NCBI GenBank assembly: GCA_018662825.1
Contig: JABJFI010000081.1
Span: forward strand, 1-55,481
Direction of reading: 5' to 3'
Source: Methanobacteriota archaeon
GTDB lineage: Archaea; Thermoplasmatota; Poseidoniia; Poseidoniales; Poseidoniaceae
Length of the DNA: 55,481 bases
Shown here: positions 35,707 through 54,280 of the stretch, piece by piece
Position numbering within the stretch: the stretch's first letter is position 1
How the letters are laid out: every line of letters starts with the position of its first letter
Notes under the pieces: generated by a model
The model's input: only the letters and a program-made list of their open reading frames with translations
Databases searched by the model: none
Told to the model about the DNA's origin: nothing
Made by a program: the position numbers and the translations under genes

Positions 35707-35797
35707 CTTCACATTCAGAAAAACGGATAATATCACCATGCGTTATTGTTCTAGATAGGGGCAATCTAAACTCATGCCCTTGGGCACACCTGAACAG

Positions 35798-35871
35798 TGG
35801 GCGATGCAGGATTCGAACCCGCGTCGACGGGTTCGAAGCCCGTCAGGATATCCAGGCTACCCTAATCGCCC
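35798..35871 (-). tRNA. tRNA-Arg (anticodon TCG), no intron, CCA not encoded
   Basis: Reverse complement is GGGCGATTAGGGTAGCCTGGATATCCTGACGGGCTTCGAACCCGTCGACGCGGGTTCGAATCCTGCATCGCCCA. Acceptor stem GGGCGAT/ATCGCCC, anticodon loop CTTCGAA, T-loop TTCGAAT. Confidence 0.93.
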
Positions 35872-46775: not shown

Positions 46776-46870
46776 TATTCCACCGTAAAATCAAACCTAA
46801 TCATTATGCCCTTCGACAAGACCGGCTCTGCTGTGATTCGTGCTATGGGTTTGGCTTAACGAATACTTCG

Positions 46871-46916
46871 GTCTGCTCCAATACCCTTTGTGTATTCTTA
46901 ACAGTTGTAAAGGGTA
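46871..46916. repeat. Intergenic element copy 1 (inverted 11-bp arms, 13-bp spacer)
   Basis: TACCCTTTGTG (46882-46892), N13, TGTAAAGGGTA (46906-46916). Confidence 0.7.
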
Positions 46917-47298: not shown

Positions 47299-47386
47299 GA
47301 TTCTTCGATGGATGAATTCGGTATAACATTATTGTTCACTATTCGGGCAGGGGCCCTATTTATCGCCTGCATTATATTCGCTAGGG

Positions 47387-48630: not shown

Positions 48631-48685
48631 TGTTTAGTAGACATCATTTTCGACTAATCGATGATATAATCGTTTTAGGGACTTA

Positions 48686-48803
48686 TCAAAGGGTCTATCC
48701 GAATACCCATTGTTCAGAAGTTGGTAAATTAGAGGGCTCGCAGTGGGTCTTGTCAGACACTACCCTCGGTATGGACGGGTATACAGTGGGAATACAGAGG
48801 GTC
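48686..48803. repeat. Intergenic element copy 2
   Basis: TACCCATTGTT, N13, ATTAGAGGGCT, then CGCAGTGGGTC. Also TACCCTCGGTA, N10, TACAGTGGGAA, TACAGAGGGTC. Confidence 0.8.
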
Positions 48804-48873
48804 TCCTAACAATTCAAATCATACCACTCGTGCCGGGCTAAGGATTATACATAGCTAATTCTCGCTGAGAAAT

Positions 48874-49527
48874 ATGGTCGAGGTTGAGTGCCCGTTATGC
48901 TCCGAGACAGTAGACCTAGGCAGTGATTCAACAGGGACTTATGAGTGTCCATACTGTGAGGGCGATTTTGAGTATGAAAGTTCAACTAGCCTGGCCTTAA
49001 ATGACACAAATCTAAAACGAGGATTGTTAAAACAAATGAATAACCCAAGGGAAACTAGTCAACGTTTGACTCAAAAAAAATTAGAAAAAATAGTACTACC
49101 TATATTCATGGTGATTTTCACTGTAGCTTTTCTTGTACTGGTTTTCGTCTACATGGGAGTGAGTGGTTGGGAGGAAACCGAAGGTGAGATTATTTCTTCA
49201 TATTCTACTGATTCGGAACTAACTGAATATCAATACACATTCAAGGTAGATGGTGAAACATTTAACGGAAGCGATGAATGTCATTCCCGCGGTGGAGGAG
49301 GGGATGAACAAAACTGTGAAAGTTATGACATTGGTGATGCTGTAATGATCTCATATAATCCTGGAAATCCAAATGAAAACGAGATGGTAGATAATCAATT
49401 ACCATCAATCTTCTTATGTTTCTTTTCATTACCAGTTATACTATTGGGTTTGACTTTATATTCAAAATTTAGAGATAGTAGCAACCTTGAAGGCACCCAT
49501 GTACAAATCGACTCGGATAAGTTGTAA
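48874..49527 (+). CDS. Membrane protein with N-terminal zinc ribbon and DUF3592-like domain
   Basis: CPLC...CPYC, a TM helix, W.ETEGEII, YQYTFKVDG, G..V.I.YNP.NP and a second TM helix. Confidence 0.75.
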   Translation: MVEVECPLCSETVDLGSDSTGTYECPYCEGDFEYESSTSLALNDTNLKRGLLKQMNNPRETSQRLTQKKLEKIVLPIFMVIFTVAFLVLVFVYMGVSGWEETEGEIISSYSTDSELTEYQYTFKVDGETFNGSDECHSRGGGGDEQNCESYDIGDAVMISYNPGNPNENEMVDNQLPSIFLCFFSLPVILLGLTLYSKFRDSSNLEGTHVQIDSDKL

Positions 49528-49694
49528 GGGGTCATCCGAAACCCCTTTGCATTTTTCTTTCCGGTACAAAGGGGATCCAGTGGGTCGATACAGACGCTAG
49601 CGAGTGTATTGGGGGACTAAACACCCATTGTACTCCTTCACAATGTCTTGAGGGGTCTGAGGAAACCCACGCAACTTCATGGAAATGATATGTC
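49528..49694. repeat. Intergenic element copy 3 (symmetric double element)
   Basis: ACCCCTTTGCA-N13-TACAAAGGGGA and CACCCATTGTA-N13-TCTTGAGGGGT lie symmetrically about CGCTAGCG (49595-49602). Confidence 0.85.
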
Positions 49695-49767
49695 GTTAGT
49701 ATGTACTGGAAAGGCCGTTTTGCTCCTTTTCCGATTATATTTTATGGCCAGTCAACAACCGACCTAC

Positions 49768-52700
49768 ATGAAGGCTAAATTAGCGACAGGTATGATTTTG
49801 ATTTTCCTATTTCAAATAGCGTCAGTTTTACCAGAAGTTGATCGATTAAGTGACTTTCAAACAGAGAGTAGATCTCAGATAAATAGCCCACAGGGGGTAA
49901 ATGATACATCCTTTGTATCTATGTCAGCACGTTCTTTTCAGTATGAGGATCATAAAGGAGATAGTAAAGAATTTGGAAATTCTTTGATTGTTATGCAACA
50001 GACAATATGGAATGGAGGGGCAGGTCCGCAATTCAACGGAAATCAGGTTTGCCCTTCTTCACTTACTTATGCACAATGTACTCATAGTTTATTGATAATT
50101 AATTACTCATCTAACACTTTAATAGCCCATATTTATGCAACTACAGAATTACATTTTGATACCTTTGAGAATTCATTGCATATATCTACACTAACTGCTG
50201 GGACAGGACAAAATGCAATGAACGTAATTTGGCCAATTCAGAGCCCTGTTAGAAATTATAGTGGACCTGGAGTCTATGTTTTTAATCAAGACGGCATTTT
50301 GTCTTCAAACACAACGAATACTATTTCCAATAAGTGGCCAGGTTATTTCACCCCTTCAACAGTTATGGGAGACACTTCTACATACACCTGTAAGCTCAAT
50401 TCGATAGTTGCTGTATCTGATTATAGTAATATATTACAACGAACATGTTGGTTTCAAGGTGGGATTGTTGCAGGACCTAGTGCAGGAACAAAACATTTCA
50501 ATTTCACAAATTCTACAGACTTTCAAAACATCACCGTTATCGGTGATAGAAGTCATGGCTATACAACAACATATCTTTTAGTAATTACACAAAAATTCAC
50601 TAATGATACAATAGAATGGACACATCCTCGCTTGTTAATGCAAGGCGCTTCAACGGCCTGTTCAACAGGATATCATAGTAGTAACAGTCCTTTATCAACC
50701 CCATATTCCATATCAACTGGGAACAACAACACATATGTATCCACATTTTGGAGCACAATATCTAGTTGTGGTTGGATTGGTACTGTGGACGTAAATAATG
50801 CCACTGAGTTTTACAGATATTCGAGTTCCTATTCTTTCGGTCAATCAGCCTTGACAATGTCTCTGAATATTTCAACAGGGCAAGAGAATTGGAAAAAAAG
50901 AATGGGTTTTTATCCTATTGACGGAAATGAAATATTACTTACAGATAATGATTTGATATTCTGTGGATCAACTCATTCCTATAGTCAAGGTTTTGTTTTG
51001 AATCAAGCAAGTTTGAACATGGGGTCGATAGGAATAGTTAGAATTAACTCAAGCACTGGAGATTATATCAGCCATGCATCGCTTCTTGGTTCTGGAACAG
51101 TTCATGGGTGTGGTAATTCTGATTCTAGCGGCAATGACGCTTTTTTAGTGATGCAAGGAGTATCGTACTTGAATGGACAATATTCTGCTTCTACTGCAAT
51201 CACATTAGTTAAATTAGATAGGCAGAATAATTTCAATCATGTTTACACTATATCGAATGCCGATTTCGGTGATTTCAATATAGATGAAAGAGCTATAATC
51301 ATTACAAATCCAGAAAATGTAAATTATGGTTCAGGTTCAATGGCAGGTGGAGATGGTCTTGGAATATTTTACTTACAAGATGATTATGACCAAGATAATC
51401 AAGCAGACAATATTGATTCTGATGACGACAATGACGGTTATCTCGATGTCAACGATAACTGCCCCAGAGGAATGATGGACTGGACACCAGGTTCTTCTAC
51501 AGACGGCGATTCTGATGGTTGTCACTTTAGTGAGGATTTAGACAATGACAATGATGGAATAGACGACTCATTAGATAATTGCGATTCTCCTGCAAACTCA
51601 TTCACTTCTACACCCATTACAGATTATGATGGAGACGGATGTAGAGATTCCACTGAAGACTACGATGATGACAATGATAACATTCTAGACATAAACGATA
51701 ATTGTATTAAGAGTGTGAATAATTCTGATGTTGCAACAAATGATACAGATTCTGATGGCTGTGGAGATTCCGTTGAGGACTCTGATGATGATAATGATGG
51801 CGTATTTGATGTGAATGACCAGTGTCAAACCTATCCAAATACCTGGCAATCTTCATCCAATACAGACCACGATAGCGATGGTTGTAAGGATTCGATAGAA
51901 GACGATGATGATGACAACGATGGCATCAATGACAATTTGGATAGTTGCTCTACTGGTAAGATTGGGTGGATACCTACTACTGAAAATGACGGTGATTCTG
52001 ATGGTTGTTACGATGCTAATGAAGACATAGATGACGACAATGATGGAGTTACTGACAGCGCAGATGCTTGTCCAAAACAAGCGGGAGATTCTTCGTTTGG
52101 CTCTTTACTAGGTTGCCCAGATACAGATCAAGATGGTTATGGAGACAATATCGATTCCTGTCAATCTGAATATGGTACAAGCTTTAGAGACGTATATGGT
52201 TGCCCAGATTCAGATGGTGATGGATACAGTGATTCTGGCGATGATTTCCCTAACGATGCATCTGCTCATTCAGACAGCGATAGCGATGGGGTTGAGGATT
52301 CAATAGATGAATTCCCGTTCCTTCCAGGCCAATGGTTGGATAATGACGGCGACGGATATGGTGATAATCCAACTGGTCCTACCCCAGATTCTTGTGTTGA
52401 AACATATGGAAATTCAACTAGAGATATTTACGGGTGTCTTGATTCTGATGGCGACGGATATAGCGACATAAATGACAAATTCCCTAATGACAAATCAAAA
52501 TGGCTAGATACTGATAATGATGGAGTTGAGGATTCTGATGATGATTTCCCATTAGATCCATCACAGCAAACAGATTCTGATGGCGATGGCTCAGGCGATA
52601 ACCCAACAGGAGTTGGGGCAGACAAGTTCCCCAATGACAGCACTCAATGGTCAGATATCGATGGAGATAGTTACGGCGATAACCCCAATGGTACAAATCC

Positions 52701-53658
52701 TGATGCATTCATTACTGATTCAACCCAGTGGTCTGATGCAGATGGTGATGGTTATGGAGATAATCCAACTGGAAGGTTGTATGACCAATTCCCGCAAAAC
52801 CCTACTCAATGGGTAGACGATGACGGTGACGGATTGGGTGACAATCTGAACGGTACTGACGCAGATCCATACCTCAATGACTTCGACAATGATGGATACA
52901 ATGACAGCATCGACATCTTACCGAAACTACCATCTCCTGGTGATTTAGATGCCGATGGTTGTCTGGATGAAGACGATGCTTTCCCTTCCAACTCTCAAGA
53001 GTGTTTGGACAATGACGGTGATGGCGAAGGCGACAATGCTGACGTTGATGATGACAATGATGGTTGGGCGGATACTGATGAAATTCGGCTAGGTACTGAC
53101 CCATTCAATTCTGCTGAAGAGCCAGTGGAATCATTCGAGATTGTGATTCCCGGAACTTCTGTTGGTCTAGGTGCTTGGGATTTGATTGGAATGTTTGGTG
53201 GTATTCCGCTATTCGTTTGGATTGGATTTGGATTTGTAACTCGCAATACTCGATGTGCAAAATACGAAACAATGCTTCGTGAAGCGAACACTCGAGACGA
53301 GTTAGAATCAGTGGCTTACAAATGGGAATACTCGCTTATGCTTCGAATGCTAGGTCCTCACCAAGGAATTCGATTAGAACGCTTACGAGCTGAATTAGAT
53401 GATAAGTTTGAGGCTATGGCCCAACCACTCTCTTCTATTGACAATCATGAATTCGACCAGACCCAAATGGTGGTTGAAGAAATGAATGATACAGAAAAAC
53501 AAGTTCCAGAATTAGTTACACAGAGTGATTACCCTTCAATCGAAGATACAGCGCAGAAAACAGACGATAATGGATATGAATGGTTCACCGCTCAAGATGG
53601 GACTAATTTCTACAGAACAATTGGCTCTCAAGCAGATTGGATAAAGTTAGAAAATTGA
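49768..53658 (+). CDS. Large membrane-anchored protein with many thrombospondin type-3-like (DxDxDG) Ca-binding repeats
   Basis: Signal peptide MKAKLA..., an S/T/N-rich N-terminal domain, many DxDxDG repeats, a TM helix and a Trp-containing C-terminal module. TATA-like TTATATTTTAT upstream of ATG 49768. Confidence 0.85.
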   Translation: MKAKLATGMILIFLFQIASVLPEVDRLSDFQTESRSQINSPQGVNDTSFVSMSARSFQYEDHKGDSKEFGNSLIVMQQTIWNGGAGPQFNGNQVCPSSLTYAQCTHSLLIINYSSNTLIAHIYATTELHFDTFENSLHISTLTAGTGQNAMNVIWPIQSPVRNYSGPGVYVFNQDGILSSNTTNTISNKWPGYFTPSTVMGDTSTYTCKLNSIVAVSDYSNILQRTCWFQGGIVAGPSAGTKHFNFTNSTDFQNITVIGDRSHGYTTTYLLVITQKFTNDTIEWTHPRLLMQGASTACSTGYHSSNSPLSTPYSISTGNNNTYVSTFWSTISSCGWIGTVDVNNATEFYRYSSSYSFGQSALTMSLNISTGQENWKKRMGFYPIDGNEILLTDNDLIFCGSTHSYSQGFVLNQASLNMGSIGIVRINSSTGDYISHASLLGSGTVHGCGNSDSSGNDAFLVMQGVSYLNGQYSASTAITLVKLDRQNNFNHVYTISNADFGDFNIDERAIIITNPENVNYGSGSMAGGDGLGIFYLQDDYDQDNQADNIDSDDDNDGYLDVNDNCPRGMMDWTPGSSTDGDSDGCHFSEDLDNDNDGIDDSLDNCDSPANSFTSTPITDYDGDGCRDSTEDYDDDNDNILDINDNCIKSVNNSDVATNDTDSDGCGDSVEDSDDDNDGVFDVNDQCQTYPNTWQSSSNTDHDSDGCKDSIEDDDDDNDGINDNLDSCSTGKIGWIPTTENDGDSDGCYDANEDIDDDNDGVTDSADACPKQAGDSSFGSLLGCPDTDQDGYGDNIDSCQSEYGTSFRDVYGCPDSDGDGYSDSGDDFPNDASAHSDSDSDGVEDSIDEFPFLPGQWLDNDGDGYGDNPTGPTPDSCVETYGNSTRDIYGCLDSDGDGYSDINDKFPNDKSKWLDTDNDGVEDSDDDFPLDPSQQTDSDGDGSGDNPTGVGADKFPNDSTQWSDIDGDSYGDNPNGTNPDAFITDSTQWSDADGDGYGDNPTGRLYDQFPQNPTQWVDDDGDGLGDNLNGTDADPYLNDFDNDGYNDSIDILPKLPSPGDLDADGCLDEDDAFPSNSQECLDNDGDGEGDNADVDDDNDGWADTDEIRLGTDPFNSAEEPVESFEIVIPGTSVGLGAWDLIGMFGGIPLFVWIGFGFVTRNTRCAKYETMLREANTRDELESVAYKWEYSLMLRMLGPHQGIRLERLRAELDDKFEAMAQPLSSIDNHEFDQTQMVVEEMNDTEKQVPELVTQSDYPSIEDTAQKTDDNGYEWFTAQDGTNFYRTIGSQADWIKLEN

Positions 53659-53670
53659 TTCAGAGCCCTA

Positions 53671-53750
53671 GCGATACCCTCTGTATAGGCGTATCATGAG
53701 TGGGTACCGACGCGTGGAATGTCGGTACAAAGGGTATCGCGTGGGGTGAT
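53671..53750. repeat. Intergenic element copy 4
   Basis: GCGATACCCTCTGTA and TACAAAGGGTATCGC are 14/15 complementary; inner hairpin GTACCGAC/GTCGGTAC. Confidence 0.85.
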
Positions 53751-53806
53751 TTTAGGCATTAGTATTTGATGTAAGCACTATTGGGAAGAATAGAGAGAGA
53801 CGTATT

Positions 53807-54097
53807 ATGACAAAGACAACGAAGAAGAAAATCATCTCATTCTCATTGATAATATTTGGAATACTTGTACTCATTACAGGGATTATGATGATTCAAACTG
53901 GATTCGCAACCTTTGATGACGACGAACCTAGAGTTTGGCTCTACATTGGAGGTATTTTTACAATAATTGGAGGCGTTTTCTTGACAGTTGGTGGAATGAT
54001 ATATCTTAACTTCGAGCGTTTGAAAAAGAAGGCACTTAGTACAGCTGGCAAGATTGCTGATGCTGTTGAAGAAGAGAGAATACAAGACAAAAAGTGA
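53807..54097 (+). CDS. Small two-TM membrane protein
   Basis: 96 aa with two hydrophobic helices and charged termini. Confidence 0.7.
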   Translation: MTKTTKKKIISFSLIIFGILVLITGIMMIQTGFATFDDDEPRVWLYIGGIFTIIGGVFLTVGGMIYLNFERLKKKALSTAGKIADAVEEERIQDKK

Positions 54098-54148
54098 TGC
54101 CTTCGTTAGAAGATAATACAACTCAAGTAGGGTCTCATACAGTCAACT

Positions 54149-54280
54149 GACATATCATTTCCACGAAATCGCAAGGGTTCTTCCAAACCCCTCAAGACAT
54201 TATGGATGAGTACAGTGGGTGTTCAGTCCACCAGTATACTGCCTACCGTTTGAAACTATGGTGTGTGGAAGGGCCCTTTG
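54149..54280. repeat. Intergenic element copy 5 (inverted copy of 49603-49694)
   Basis: ACCCCTCAAGA-N13-TACAGTGGGTG. 74/92 identity to the reverse complement of 49603-49694. AAGGGCCCTT palindrome at 54269-54278. Confidence 0.85.

Follow-up and report, generated by a model that had tools for sequence, protein, structure and literature searches.

Organization of the locus and of its inverted repeats

The region described here belongs to a 55,481-nucleotide stretch of DNA from a marine Group II archaeon of the Poseidoniaceae (contig JABJFI010000081.1), which was analysed as a whole and is called the window below. It carries a gene for a large TSP3-like protein and a small membrane protein gene, bracketed by two inverted arms. 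Aligned ungapped, 49603-49694 and the reverse-complemented 54149-54240 agree at 74/92 positions, and of the 18 mismatches 15 are transitions, exactly as claimed in the initial annotation, whereas the best 92-nt inverted match in five shuffles of the surrounding 7.5 kb reached 48-50/92. A repeat search extends the arms to 49591-49705 and 54138-54252 (115 nt, 77% complementary, spacing 4432 nt). The reported absence of a transposase between them was borne out by a Pfam scan of the ORFs, which returned only TSP3-like repeats and a DUF308-like membrane protein. On the other hand, the statement that there is no obvious target-site duplication needs qualifying: a TA dinucleotide lies on the outer side of each arm (49598-49599 and 54244-54245), and this outer TA is the exact break-point of homology in relatives.

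Each arm is a copy of a core family, type A, that forms one end (the R end, about 100-140 nt) of a gene cassette; the opposite end is a short L end. Three cassettes, all devoid of a recombinase gene, adjoin one another in the window, and the arms are conserved ends that belong to two different, adjacent cassettes. The array comprises the following features.

46880-46916, + strand: possible L end with TA, possible start of the cassette array in the window (junction site 46915, +)
48763-49597, core on - strand: cassette 0, head to head with cassette 1 at TA 49598-9
48763-48806, - strand: L end of cassette 0 (junction site 48762, -; boundary of the block shared with G066)
48874-49527, + strand: cassette 0 cargo, DUF3592-like membrane protein of 217 aa (Pfam PF12158, E 4.6e-8)
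49503-49597, - strand: type B core, R end of cassette 0 (alignment; 88% identity to the C100 copy)
49598-49599, no strand: TA junction, type B core (-) and type A core (+) head to head (sequence context)
49600-53704, + strand: cassette 1 with the TSP3-like gene, tail to tail with cassette 2
49600-49695, + strand: type A core, R end of cassette 1 and left repeat arm (nhmmer, 104-copy profile, E 1.7e-28)
49744-53658, + strand: cassette 1 cargo, large Asp-rich TSP3-like repeat protein (within ORF 49648-53658)
53671-53704, + strand: L end of cassette 1 (junction site 53705, +; similar to the left flank of the G009 copy)
53705-53706, no strand: TA junction of cassettes 1 and 2, tail to tail (L-TA-L'; 40-nt arms, 70% complementary)
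53707-54243, - strand: cassette 2 with the small membrane gene, meeting cassette 1 at TA 53705-6
53707-53745, - strand: L end of cassette 2 (homology with G073, G014 and G007 starts here)
53807-54097, + strand: cassette 2 cargo, membrane protein of 96 aa (DUF308, E 9.3e-6)
54148-54243, - strand: type A core, R end of cassette 2 and right repeat arm, followed by TA 54244-5 (nhmmer, E 1.5e-32)

At the left of the array, homology of the gene preceding the possible L end with G007, G077 and G088 ends at 46842-46876. The L end of cassette 0 is followed, in its - strand orientation, by TA 48761-2 and, further left, by the diverged core of the next cassette (about 48640-48760, - strand); the homology block starting at about 48763 (48763-49584) is 89% identical to G066:C18. 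The inner part of the type B core of cassette 0 overlaps the stop and last codons of its cargo gene. On the + strand the sequence of the head-to-head junction is GACGC TA GCGAGTG, the - strand giving CTCGC TA GCGTCTG, and such A/B junctions make up 16 of the 143 unique sites. The type A core of cassette 1 starts directly after this TA, and a gap of 48 nt separates it from the downstream position 49744, the likely start codon of the TSP3 gene. The encoded protein has a hydrophobic N-terminal segment and many D-rich repeats, with weak TSP_3 and TSP3_bac matches under the Pfam cut-off. Parts of its gene are covered by RNA-library contigs with 0 differences, and for 49.7-52.4 kb of the window there is no match among those listed from 71 other genomes of the genus.

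The arms of the tail-to-tail junction between cassettes 1 and 2 span 53666-53705 and 53706-53745. The same L-TA-L' junction is found between inverted A copies at G058:C17 and G014:C45, and at both places one of the two cassettes contains a recombinase gene. Since the two cassettes of the window lie tail to tail, their R cores form an inverted repeat 4.4 kb apart. An ORF antisense to the cassette 2 cargo gene looks non-protein-like.

A conserved core family in Poseidoniales

The cassette family is widespread in Poseidoniaceae. Among 61 related Poseidoniales genomes, including that of the window (G000, three full type A copies), type A occurs in 24 and its sister, type B, in 29. Furthermore, a 36-nt pattern search of a species-genome collection returned 72 stretches, nearly all of them titled Poseidoniales or Poseidoniaceae. 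The core directly follows a TA dinucleotide in each copy, and a CA-N-W-S-S-S half-site is present on both sides of this TA (108 A sites, 33 B sites). These shared half-sites constitute an imperfect dyad, as expected of the crossover site of a serine recombinase (PMC4058570).

The next gene is convergent with the core in 71 of 91 cases, in which the bulk of the site is located 3' of the cargo gene. The cargo itself is very diverse: 112 first-cargo proteins fall into 76 clusters, and each of the 25 Pfam families displayed (of 40) was matched by one cluster only. At one orthologous locus (28 pairs), the core is 89% identical and the neighbouring gene 69%; such higher conservation of the core would likewise agree with selection for a role unrelated to mobility.

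The mobile unit is bounded by TA and has two unlike ends

Comparison with relatives defined the mobile unit as TA, core, cargo gene or genes, an L end of about 40 nt and a second TA. This definition relies on one pair of filled and empty sites and on at least five cassettes, each found in two to four contexts. The empty site (G020:C3) reads AGAGGG-TA-TGCTCC; at the filled site, on a UBA255 contig, two TAs enclose an insert of 1768 nt whose first part is a type A core and whose last part is an L end. Their left flanks are 99% identical over 1071 nt and their right flanks identical at 56/56 nt, as far as the contig end. Cassette 2 was found in four contexts. At least four further cassettes of 1.25-2.0 kb (L043/L120, L047/L054, L039/L047 and L039/L086), drawn from 33 listed HSPs with both ends inside both loci, are TA-bounded on both sides.

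The ends of homology blocks cluster at the TA, as seen from 222 endpoints counted within 200 nt of it. For core-side blocks, 82 endpoints fall in the bin -10 to -1 and 31 in the bin 0 to 9; for L-side blocks, 18 fall in 0 to 9, nine of these exactly at +1. In 25 pairs of loci, flanks that are 80-99% identical over 0.4-3.9 kb diverge exactly after the TA, beyond which one partner has a core and the other something else. Some junctions occupy secondary positions within the core instead of the canonical TA (L054, L107). Assembly chimeras at repeats could occur in metagenome-assembled genomes (MAGs); the L-TA-L' junctions and the filled/empty pair, however, are not producible in this way.

Empty-site alleles, which the initial annotation had suggested looking for, and alternative-junction alleles are present in relatives and in a 99.9%-identical strain from a public DNA run. 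A contig of the DNA run X3 is collinear with 48800-53706 of the window, with 6 differences, after which the start of a type A core replaces the window sequence, so that the TSP3 cassette has a different right-hand neighbour there.

These junctions bear on the initial annotation's reading of the arms, namely that they are the terminal inverted repeats of one non-autonomous 4.6-kb transposon, or the sites of one invertible segment, with both genes inside. The inverted order of the arms and the TA outside each agree with it, other genomes likewise contain inverted pairs of A copies, spaced 2.6-9 kb, and a palindromic crossover dinucleotide would permit inversion between the arms. However, the segment is split by the L-TA-L' junction at 53705-6, its right-hand part exists alone in G073, G014 and G007, and its left-hand part has another neighbour in X3. 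The ends of the unit in the filled/empty pair are unlike each other, and the inverted pairs of G058 and G014 contain the same internal tail-to-tail junction. No inversion of the whole segment was found among the listed joints from contigs of two DNA runs; contigs drop rare variants, and inversion may nevertheless occur. That the segment is a single unit is highly improbable. The earlier proposal of mobile DNA stands insofar as the elements are non-autonomous and mobilised in trans, since repeats in mobile DNA whose stretch lacks its own recombinase require it; the arms, by contrast, are not the two ends of one unit but the same end, R, of two cassettes joined tail to tail.

A transposon or MITE with terminal inverted repeats was also considered and rejected: such repeats are absent from the unit as delimited by the filled/empty pair and by cassettes in different contexts, where a core at one end faces an unrelated L end of about 40 nt at the other.

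A small serine recombinase is linked to the core

Proteins with the PF00239 domain are encoded in 14 of the 61 relatives. At 14 loci the protein, a serine recombinase of about 260 aa, reaches 56% identity to the query or more. Ten of them have an A or B core 47-212 nt upstream of its gene on the same strand, and none of the 14 has such a core on the opposite one. The core is diverged at an eleventh locus, L209, and at L198 the available upstream sequence is only 161 nt. No core was found near the homologues of at most 47% identity (0/14 loci). Furthermore, the recombinase clades follow the core type, A-linked recombinases forming a clade with support 1.0.

These recombinases are 239-262 aa long, with the Resolvase domain at the N-terminus (residues 14-167 of 261). 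The match to PF07508 (Recombinase) is limited to profile positions 3-52 of 102, and HTH_7 gave no match. The protein is thus unlike a typical resolvase, which has HTH_7, and unlike a large serine integrase, of which it has the start of the Recombinase domain only. The closest solved structures are the gamma-delta and Tn3 resolvases and a serine integrase.

Counting against this link, many genomes have cores but no recombinase match: by our own tally, a core is present in 25 of the 47 genomes without such a match, and three genomes (G002, G004, G033) have a match without a core. In the genome of the window, which is 92% complete, we found no A- or B-linked recombinase; it has one relative of 36% identity, on contig C30, with no core nearby.

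This absence would suit a variant in which the cassettes are real but moved by another enzyme, such as the single conserved, Xer-like tyrosine recombinase, in the manner of Xer-dependent modules, or an unrecognised transposase, the serine recombinase being then no more than frequent cargo. A tyrosine recombinase is encoded in 58 of the 61 relatives, including the genome of the window. However, a universal enzyme does not track the patchy cores, whereas the serine recombinase gene is placed and oriented uniformly relative to the core, and the enzyme's clades correspond to core type. A two-base crossover, moreover, suits serine and not tyrosine recombinases (PMC4058570). Y1 transposase and TnpB domains were absent from the window's genome, and IS110-type genes (PF01548, PF02371) from the five genomes searched (G000, G020, G003, G018, G016). 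Movement by another enzyme is consequently quite unlikely. An IS110 or bridge-RNA element, examined as a separate candidate, was rejected, as the DEDD and Tnp recombinase families were missing from all five.

A proposed cassette system with crossover at TA

We consider, with a probability of roughly 0.7, that the arms are R-end cores of TA-bounded mobile cassettes that move by crossover at the TA, most likely through the serine recombinase of about 260 aa. The enzyme would be encoded just downstream of the core in autonomous copies and would mobilise recombinase-less cassettes in trans. Site-specific recombination probably proceeds via a circular intermediate with joined L and R ends; neither a circular form nor an excision event was observed in our data. 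Since TA is its own reverse complement, cassettes should be joinable in either orientation, which would yield head-to-tail (L-TA-R), tail-to-tail (L-TA-L') and head-to-head (R'-TA-R) junctions. Ghosh et al. reportedly found in 2003 that the central dinucleotide determines the orientation of serine-integrase reactions.

Several known systems share parts of this organization. As in the IS607 family, the unit lacks inverted repeats and is flanked by a fixed overlap dinucleotide, here a TA at either end of the insert and one TA at the empty site. On the other hand, the IS607 dinucleotide is GG, and in IS607 transposases the DNA-binding domain precedes the catalytic one, whereas the Resolvase domain of the present protein is N-terminal. 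A TnpB partner was not seen, and most cassettes, unlike IS607, have no recombinase, carry unrelated cargo and form arrays. The Tn3-type res site resembles the core in its length of about 100 nt, its position directly upstream of the recombinase gene and its strand, and the several inverted-repeat sub-sites may have putative counterparts in the core; crossover would likewise take place at a central dinucleotide, here a TA within an imperfect dyad. Resolvases, however, only resolve cointegrates and have a C-terminal HTH. Large serine recombinases (phage integrases, Tn4451-like) have 400-700 aa and a zinc-ribbon and coiled-coil part, while the protein described here has only the Resolvase domain and the first half of the Recombinase domain.

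Integrons share the arrays of very diverse, promoter-poor single-gene cassettes common to several genomes, a site lying mostly 3' of the cargo gene, a precise crossover point and an enzyme acting in trans. They differ in using the tyrosine recombinase IntI, whereas the linked enzyme is here a serine recombinase, and in a single cassette orientation per array, which is here mixed, with head-to-head and tail-to-tail junctions. Their attC sites are folded, with conserved R''/L''/L'/R' boxes and crossover in GTTRRRY; inspection by eye shows crossover at TA and no GTTRRRY box in our family. No IntI-like gene lies beside the arrays, the one universal tyrosine recombinase per genome being encoded elsewhere. 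The archaeal-integron paper, as far as consulted, does not mention Poseidoniales (PMC9668308), and our literature searches found no description of this cassette family or of a serine-recombinase cassette system.

More tentatively, with odds somewhat short of even, marine Group II archaea may have a cassette platform comparable to integrons but operated by a small serine recombinase in place of the tyrosine integrase. Its single-gene cassettes, each having one long R site and one short L site, would pass from species to species and be stacked either way at a palindromic TA crossover. If so, much of the flexible gene content of these abundant ocean archaea, for surface proteins, membrane proteins and restriction-modification, would come from this platform. 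Poseidoniales rank with the most abundant surface-ocean archaea; we know of no cultured member, and to our knowledge the build-up of their variable genome regions is largely unknown. A cassette system with exact boundaries would allow flexible genes to be delimited in MAGs and would account for assembly breaks at these places. It would also highlight a compact archaeal serine recombinase (about 260 aa) with a defined site of about 150 nt, amenable to bench tests, and give the integron idea a serine-recombinase counterpart.

Folding of the core

The core could instead encode a structured RNA, or act in cis as part of one, with transcription from the strand that is + for the left arm. Such an RNA might be a cofactor or the leader of an mRNA for the recombinase or the cargo; the conservation of the core would then reflect RNA function, the DNA break-points being secondary. 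The location of the core ahead of the recombinase gene, in the same orientation, and its conservation above that of the neighbouring gene would suit such a role. On ungapped columns, alifold gave -38.9 for the forward and -32.4 for the reverse strand, and the share of pairing cells is 94% on the forward strand and 81% when the reverse is read. Wobble pairing accommodates six polymorphic columns (A/G opposite U, C/U opposite G) on the forward strand only, 1-nt insertions and deletions are located in loops, and a long hairpin, judged by eye, is kept in types A and B with different letters. However, the RNAalifold consensus energy is only -1.64 kcal/mol, single copies fold no better than shuffles (z -1.2 to +0.9), and in 104 copies 53 to 157 of 500 shuffles reach the observed covariation values, that is, there is no excess. 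No consistent promoter-like motif was found upstream of the core, and since the next gene is mostly convergent (71/91), the core is no general 5' leader. A dimeric DNA-binding protein would need inverted repeats with variable spacers just as much. An RNA as the primary product is thus unlikely. As an addition to the recombination model, a core that is also made into a structured RNA participating in the reaction appears rather improbable as well. No family of Rfam 15 matches the core, the C69 copy remaining without a match even at E up to 10; the sole Rfam match in the window is a tRNA-Arg at 35797-35871.

Inverted repeats and the core families

The initial annotation had proposed that inverted repeats at 49603-49694 and 54149-54240 bracket one unit, either invertible or excisable or non-autonomous; we read the region as two tail-to-tail cassettes. 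The repeat itself is confirmed: 49603-49694 matches the reverse complement of 54149-54240 at 74 of 92 positions, with transitions making up 15 of the 18 differences, and in a repeat search of the window the arms reach 115 nt with 77% complementarity. In five shuffles of the surrounding 7.5 kb, the best inverted match was 48-50/92. The arms enclose a 1336-codon ORF with weak TSP3-type matches and a gene for a 96-aa DUF308-like membrane protein, and a Pfam scan of the ORFs found no transposase there, as had been claimed.

Both arms are copies of a conserved core of about 100 nt, termed type A. A third full copy is carried by contig C69 of the same genome, and type A is present in 24 of 61 related genomes, a draw that includes the window's own (21/36 in the same genus, 0/2 in family f2 and 2/22 in family f3), with up to 8 copies per genome, often clustered. 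A 36-nt pattern recovered 72 stretches from the species-genome collection, whose titles name Candidatus Poseidoniales, Poseidoniaceae, Poseidonia or unclassified euryarchaeal MAGs, two being labelled as bacteria; on this basis the organism belongs to the marine Group II archaea. In an alignment of 104 distinct type A copies, conservation reaches 90% or more in most columns. A second, related family, type B, has the overall layout and several blocks in common with type A; it is found in the window's genome as well and in 29/61 relatives. One type B copy, at 49503-49597 on the minus strand, stands head to head with the left arm, which accounts for the weaker similarity reported outward of the arms.

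G/C-rich hairpins of the form AAGGGG-loop-CCCCTT are seen at gene ends in many loci and at 49527-49552 in the window. The latter is the type B core's inner hairpin seen from the opposite strand, so that some of the apparent terminators in this region belong to cores. A type A core also lies near 500-600 in locus L064, taken from CM001443.1, the first assembled MG-II genome. Elsewhere in the same record N runs follow a TA-bounded flank, which indicates that assemblies are prone to breaking at such sites.

Cassette array at the end of the contig

A cassette consists of a core at one end (the R end), cargo and an L end of about 40 nt, with TA on both sides. The following elements were delineated in the window.

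Cassettes and TA junctions of the window
48761-2: TA junction
48763-49597, minus strand: cassette 0, with type B core, DUF3592-like gene and L end
49598-9: TA junction, head to head
49600-53704, plus strand: cassette 1, with type A core, TSP3-like gene and L end
53705-6: TA junction, tail to tail
53707-54243, minus strand: cassette 2, with L end, small membrane gene and type A core
54244-5: TA junction

The cassette-site pattern occurs six times in the window, always within 47.3-54.3 kb, compared with an average of 0.7 sites in shuffles; the last 8 kb of the contig thus form a cassette array. The tail-to-tail junction at TA 53705-6 coincides with a 40-nt quasi-palindrome (I2), and the same arrangement between inverted type A cores is found in two related genomes (G058:C17 and G014:C45). 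Over window positions 49.7-52.4 kb, in the TSP3-like gene, there was no match among those listed (71 other genomes of the genus; 267 further matches lie outside the list).

A diverged third type of core was noted at 48640-48760 on the minus strand, after TA 48761-2, together with a further candidate site at 47382, which suggests that core families beyond A and B exist. The sole RNA gene found in the window is a tRNA-Arg (anticodon TCG) at 35797-35871 on the minus strand.

Filled and empty sites

Direct comparison of an empty and a filled site shows the extent of one cassette. Contig C3 of genome G020 reads ..AGAGGG-TA-TGCTCC.., and at the same place a Ca. Poseidonia alphae contig carries TA, 1768 nt and TA. 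The flanks of the two sites are 99% identical over 1071 nt on the left and fully identical on the right for 56 nt, where the contig ends. A type A core opens the insert and an L-end motif of about 40 nt closes it; many cores have a motif of this kind on their left. Core and L end do not form an inverted repeat with each other. Similarly, cassette 2 (53707-54243) recurs in G073, G014 and G007 at 89-92% identity, with TA on both sides and unrelated flanks, and among the 33 HSPs listed at least four other cassettes, 1.25-2.0 kb long, show the same pattern (locus pairs L043/L120, L047/L054, L039/L047 and L039/L086). Furthermore, a DNA contig from the public run X3 follows the window over 48800-53706 with 6 differences and then, unlike the window, enters the start of a type A core after TA 53705-6.

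Against the cassette model, no circular form or excision event was seen in the material compared. Among the joints listed for contigs of two DNA runs none changes strand, a result that neither supports nor counters the proposed inversion. One DNA contig from run X5 joins 53737 to 54137, skipping 53738-54136 and with them the small membrane gene; this joint, which links the interior of the L end with the core's inner edge, may represent a cargo-less form. RNA-library contigs cover parts of the TSP3 gene, where uncovered stretches are uninformative and strand and transcript ends are unreadable from the contigs, and one such contig, 90% identical, spans 54025-54225.

Other results also run counter to the model. 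At a locus orthologous in 8 genomes, mean identity amounts to 89% in the core, 69% in the adjacent gene and 33% in the other flank. The higher identity of the core than of the gene points to selection or copy-to-copy correction and not to the simple decay of a dead insert. In two pairs of near-identical genomes the core marks the start of the high-identity block, and it has diverged more than the adjacent gene. Blocks starting exactly at a type A core were also noted between genomes of different species, over 3.8 kb for L051 (G019:C3)/L053 (G003:C5) and 1.0 kb for L044 (G018:C11)/L045 (G032:C25). Their identity of 98.6-99.4% suggests a recent exchange of cassettes between species, or else a binning mix-up.

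TA as the break-point

TA immediately precedes every core. Homology blocks were compared all against all among 135 non-redundant loci, which gave 222 block endpoints within 200 nt of TA. On the core side, 82 endpoints fall in the bin -10 to -1 and 31 in the bin 0 to 9 relative to TA; since the conserved core begins at this place, part of that pile-up is trivial. The pile-up on the L side is not trivial: 18 endpoints fall in the bin 0 to 9, nine of them exactly at +1. Moreover, in 25 locus pairs the flanks are 80-99% identical over 0.4-3.9 kb and the match ends exactly after TA; past this point a core follows in one genome, and the other continues with a different flank in reverse complement, with a truncated core or with unrelated DNA. 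Counter to the model, certain junctions fall at secondary positions within a core instead of at the canonical TA.

Both sides of TA have in common a half-site, CA-N-W-S-S-S, and 16 of 143 unique sites are arranged head to head. In serine integrases, the central dinucleotide alone sets orientation. TA, being its own reverse complement, would set no polarity at the crossover, and this inability of a palindromic dinucleotide would explain why the junctions L-TA-R, L-TA-L' and R'-TA-R all occur. Cleavage at a central dinucleotide inside an imperfect dyad is described for serine recombinases (PMC4058570).

A candidate serine recombinase

Resolvase-domain genes are present in 14 of the 61 relatives. 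On contigs G058:C17, G014:C45 and G009:C3, a gene for a protein of about 260 aa begins a short distance downstream of a core, of type A or B, and shares its strand. Residues 14-167 of this protein form a Resolvase domain, after which comes the first half of a Recombinase domain, and its best solved relatives are the gamma-delta and Tn3 resolvases and a serine integrase. The next gene in G058 encodes a C5 DNA methylase. Homologues occur in 32 of 301 genomes drawn from the order. At an identity to the query of 56% or more, a core lies 47-212 nt upstream on the same strand in 10 of 14 loci and on the opposite strand in none; one more of these loci has a diverged core and another has too little upstream sequence. 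No core accompanies the more distant homologues (0/14 loci). Recombinases linked to type A form one clade (support 1.0), separate from those linked to type B. From this association we infer that a small serine recombinase likely moves the cassettes. The closest protein in the window's own genome is only 36% identical with no core nearby, and many genomes with cores show no match to the recombinase, both of which count against the model.

The sole serine recombinase gene of the window's genome (locus L192, on G000:C30) encodes 283 aa. Just upstream of its start codon lies a copy, about 40 nt long, of a segment of its own coding sequence (about 2015-2045 versus 1385-1412), which may be a trace of insertion into, or recombination with, a related gene.

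Other enzymes and origins were also considered. A tyrosine recombinase was rejected as the driver, being a single universal copy per genome (58/61) unlinked to cores. An additional weak tyrosine-integrase-like gene of 430-450 aa in G020, G016 and G003 belongs to a different conserved element, a near-identical block at contig ends in L180 (G020:C5:1-9000), L181 (G016:C5) and L182 (G003:C2). This block, which also encodes a P-loop protein and others, has the look of an integrated element of its own, and neither core type lies near it. Y1 transposase and TnpB domains were not found in the window's own genome, nor IS110-type families in 5 genomes. A viral origin was set aside, as the collection of viral contigs gave 0 matches to the A or B pattern. 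The Charybdis elements of Poseidoniales, described as 4.6-kb multi-gene circles whose integrated forms have an annotated integrase/recombinase gene, with several of them located beside tRNA genes (10.1101/2025.08.03.668216), are different from the cassettes.

Dinucleotide crossover and unlike ends are features found in IS607-type and large-serine-recombinase elements, and arrays of diverse recombinase-less cassettes with a site 3' of the gene recall integrons. The cassettes nevertheless differ from these families in defining features, namely domain order, protein size, recombinase class and array orientation. No prior description of this cassette system was found in the literature searched; the main text of a paper on archaeal integrons makes no mention of Poseidoniales (PMC9668308).

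The core as protein or RNA

A reverse-strand frame is open in all three type A copies of the window's own genome. A small protein encoded there was rejected: 1-nt insertions and deletions across the 104 copies break the frame, copies reading CCCTTACGA contain an in-frame TAA, and third-codon positions are no less invariant than the others.

No tRNA or Rfam family was found at the arms. There is a thin case for the core as a structured RNA, since alifold on ungapped columns gives -38.9 for the forward strand versus -32.4 for the reverse, 94% of cells pair on the forward strand, and six polymorphic columns are wobble-compatible on that strand only. However, single copies fold no better than shuffles, a separate consensus fold is weak (-1.64 kcal/mol), and covariation is not significant, with 53 to 157 of 500 shuffles reaching the observed values. 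The same inverted repeats with variable spacers would, moreover, be used by a dimeric DNA-binding protein.

Gene position and cargo

With genes predicted by a simple ORF call, the core and its 3' neighbour are convergent in 71 of 91 cases. Most of the element therefore tends to sit directly behind a gene's stop codon, on the strand opposite to that gene. At the 5' side no orientation bias was observed (56 vs 43, same call). The 112 distinct first-cargo proteins, some of which may be neighbours and not cargo, fall into 76 clusters. Of 40 Pfam families, the 25 shown each match a single cluster; among them are transporters, reductases, a Macro domain, a glycosyltransferase and PLD-like and GIY-YIG nucleases, as well as collagen-like and TSP3-like repeats.
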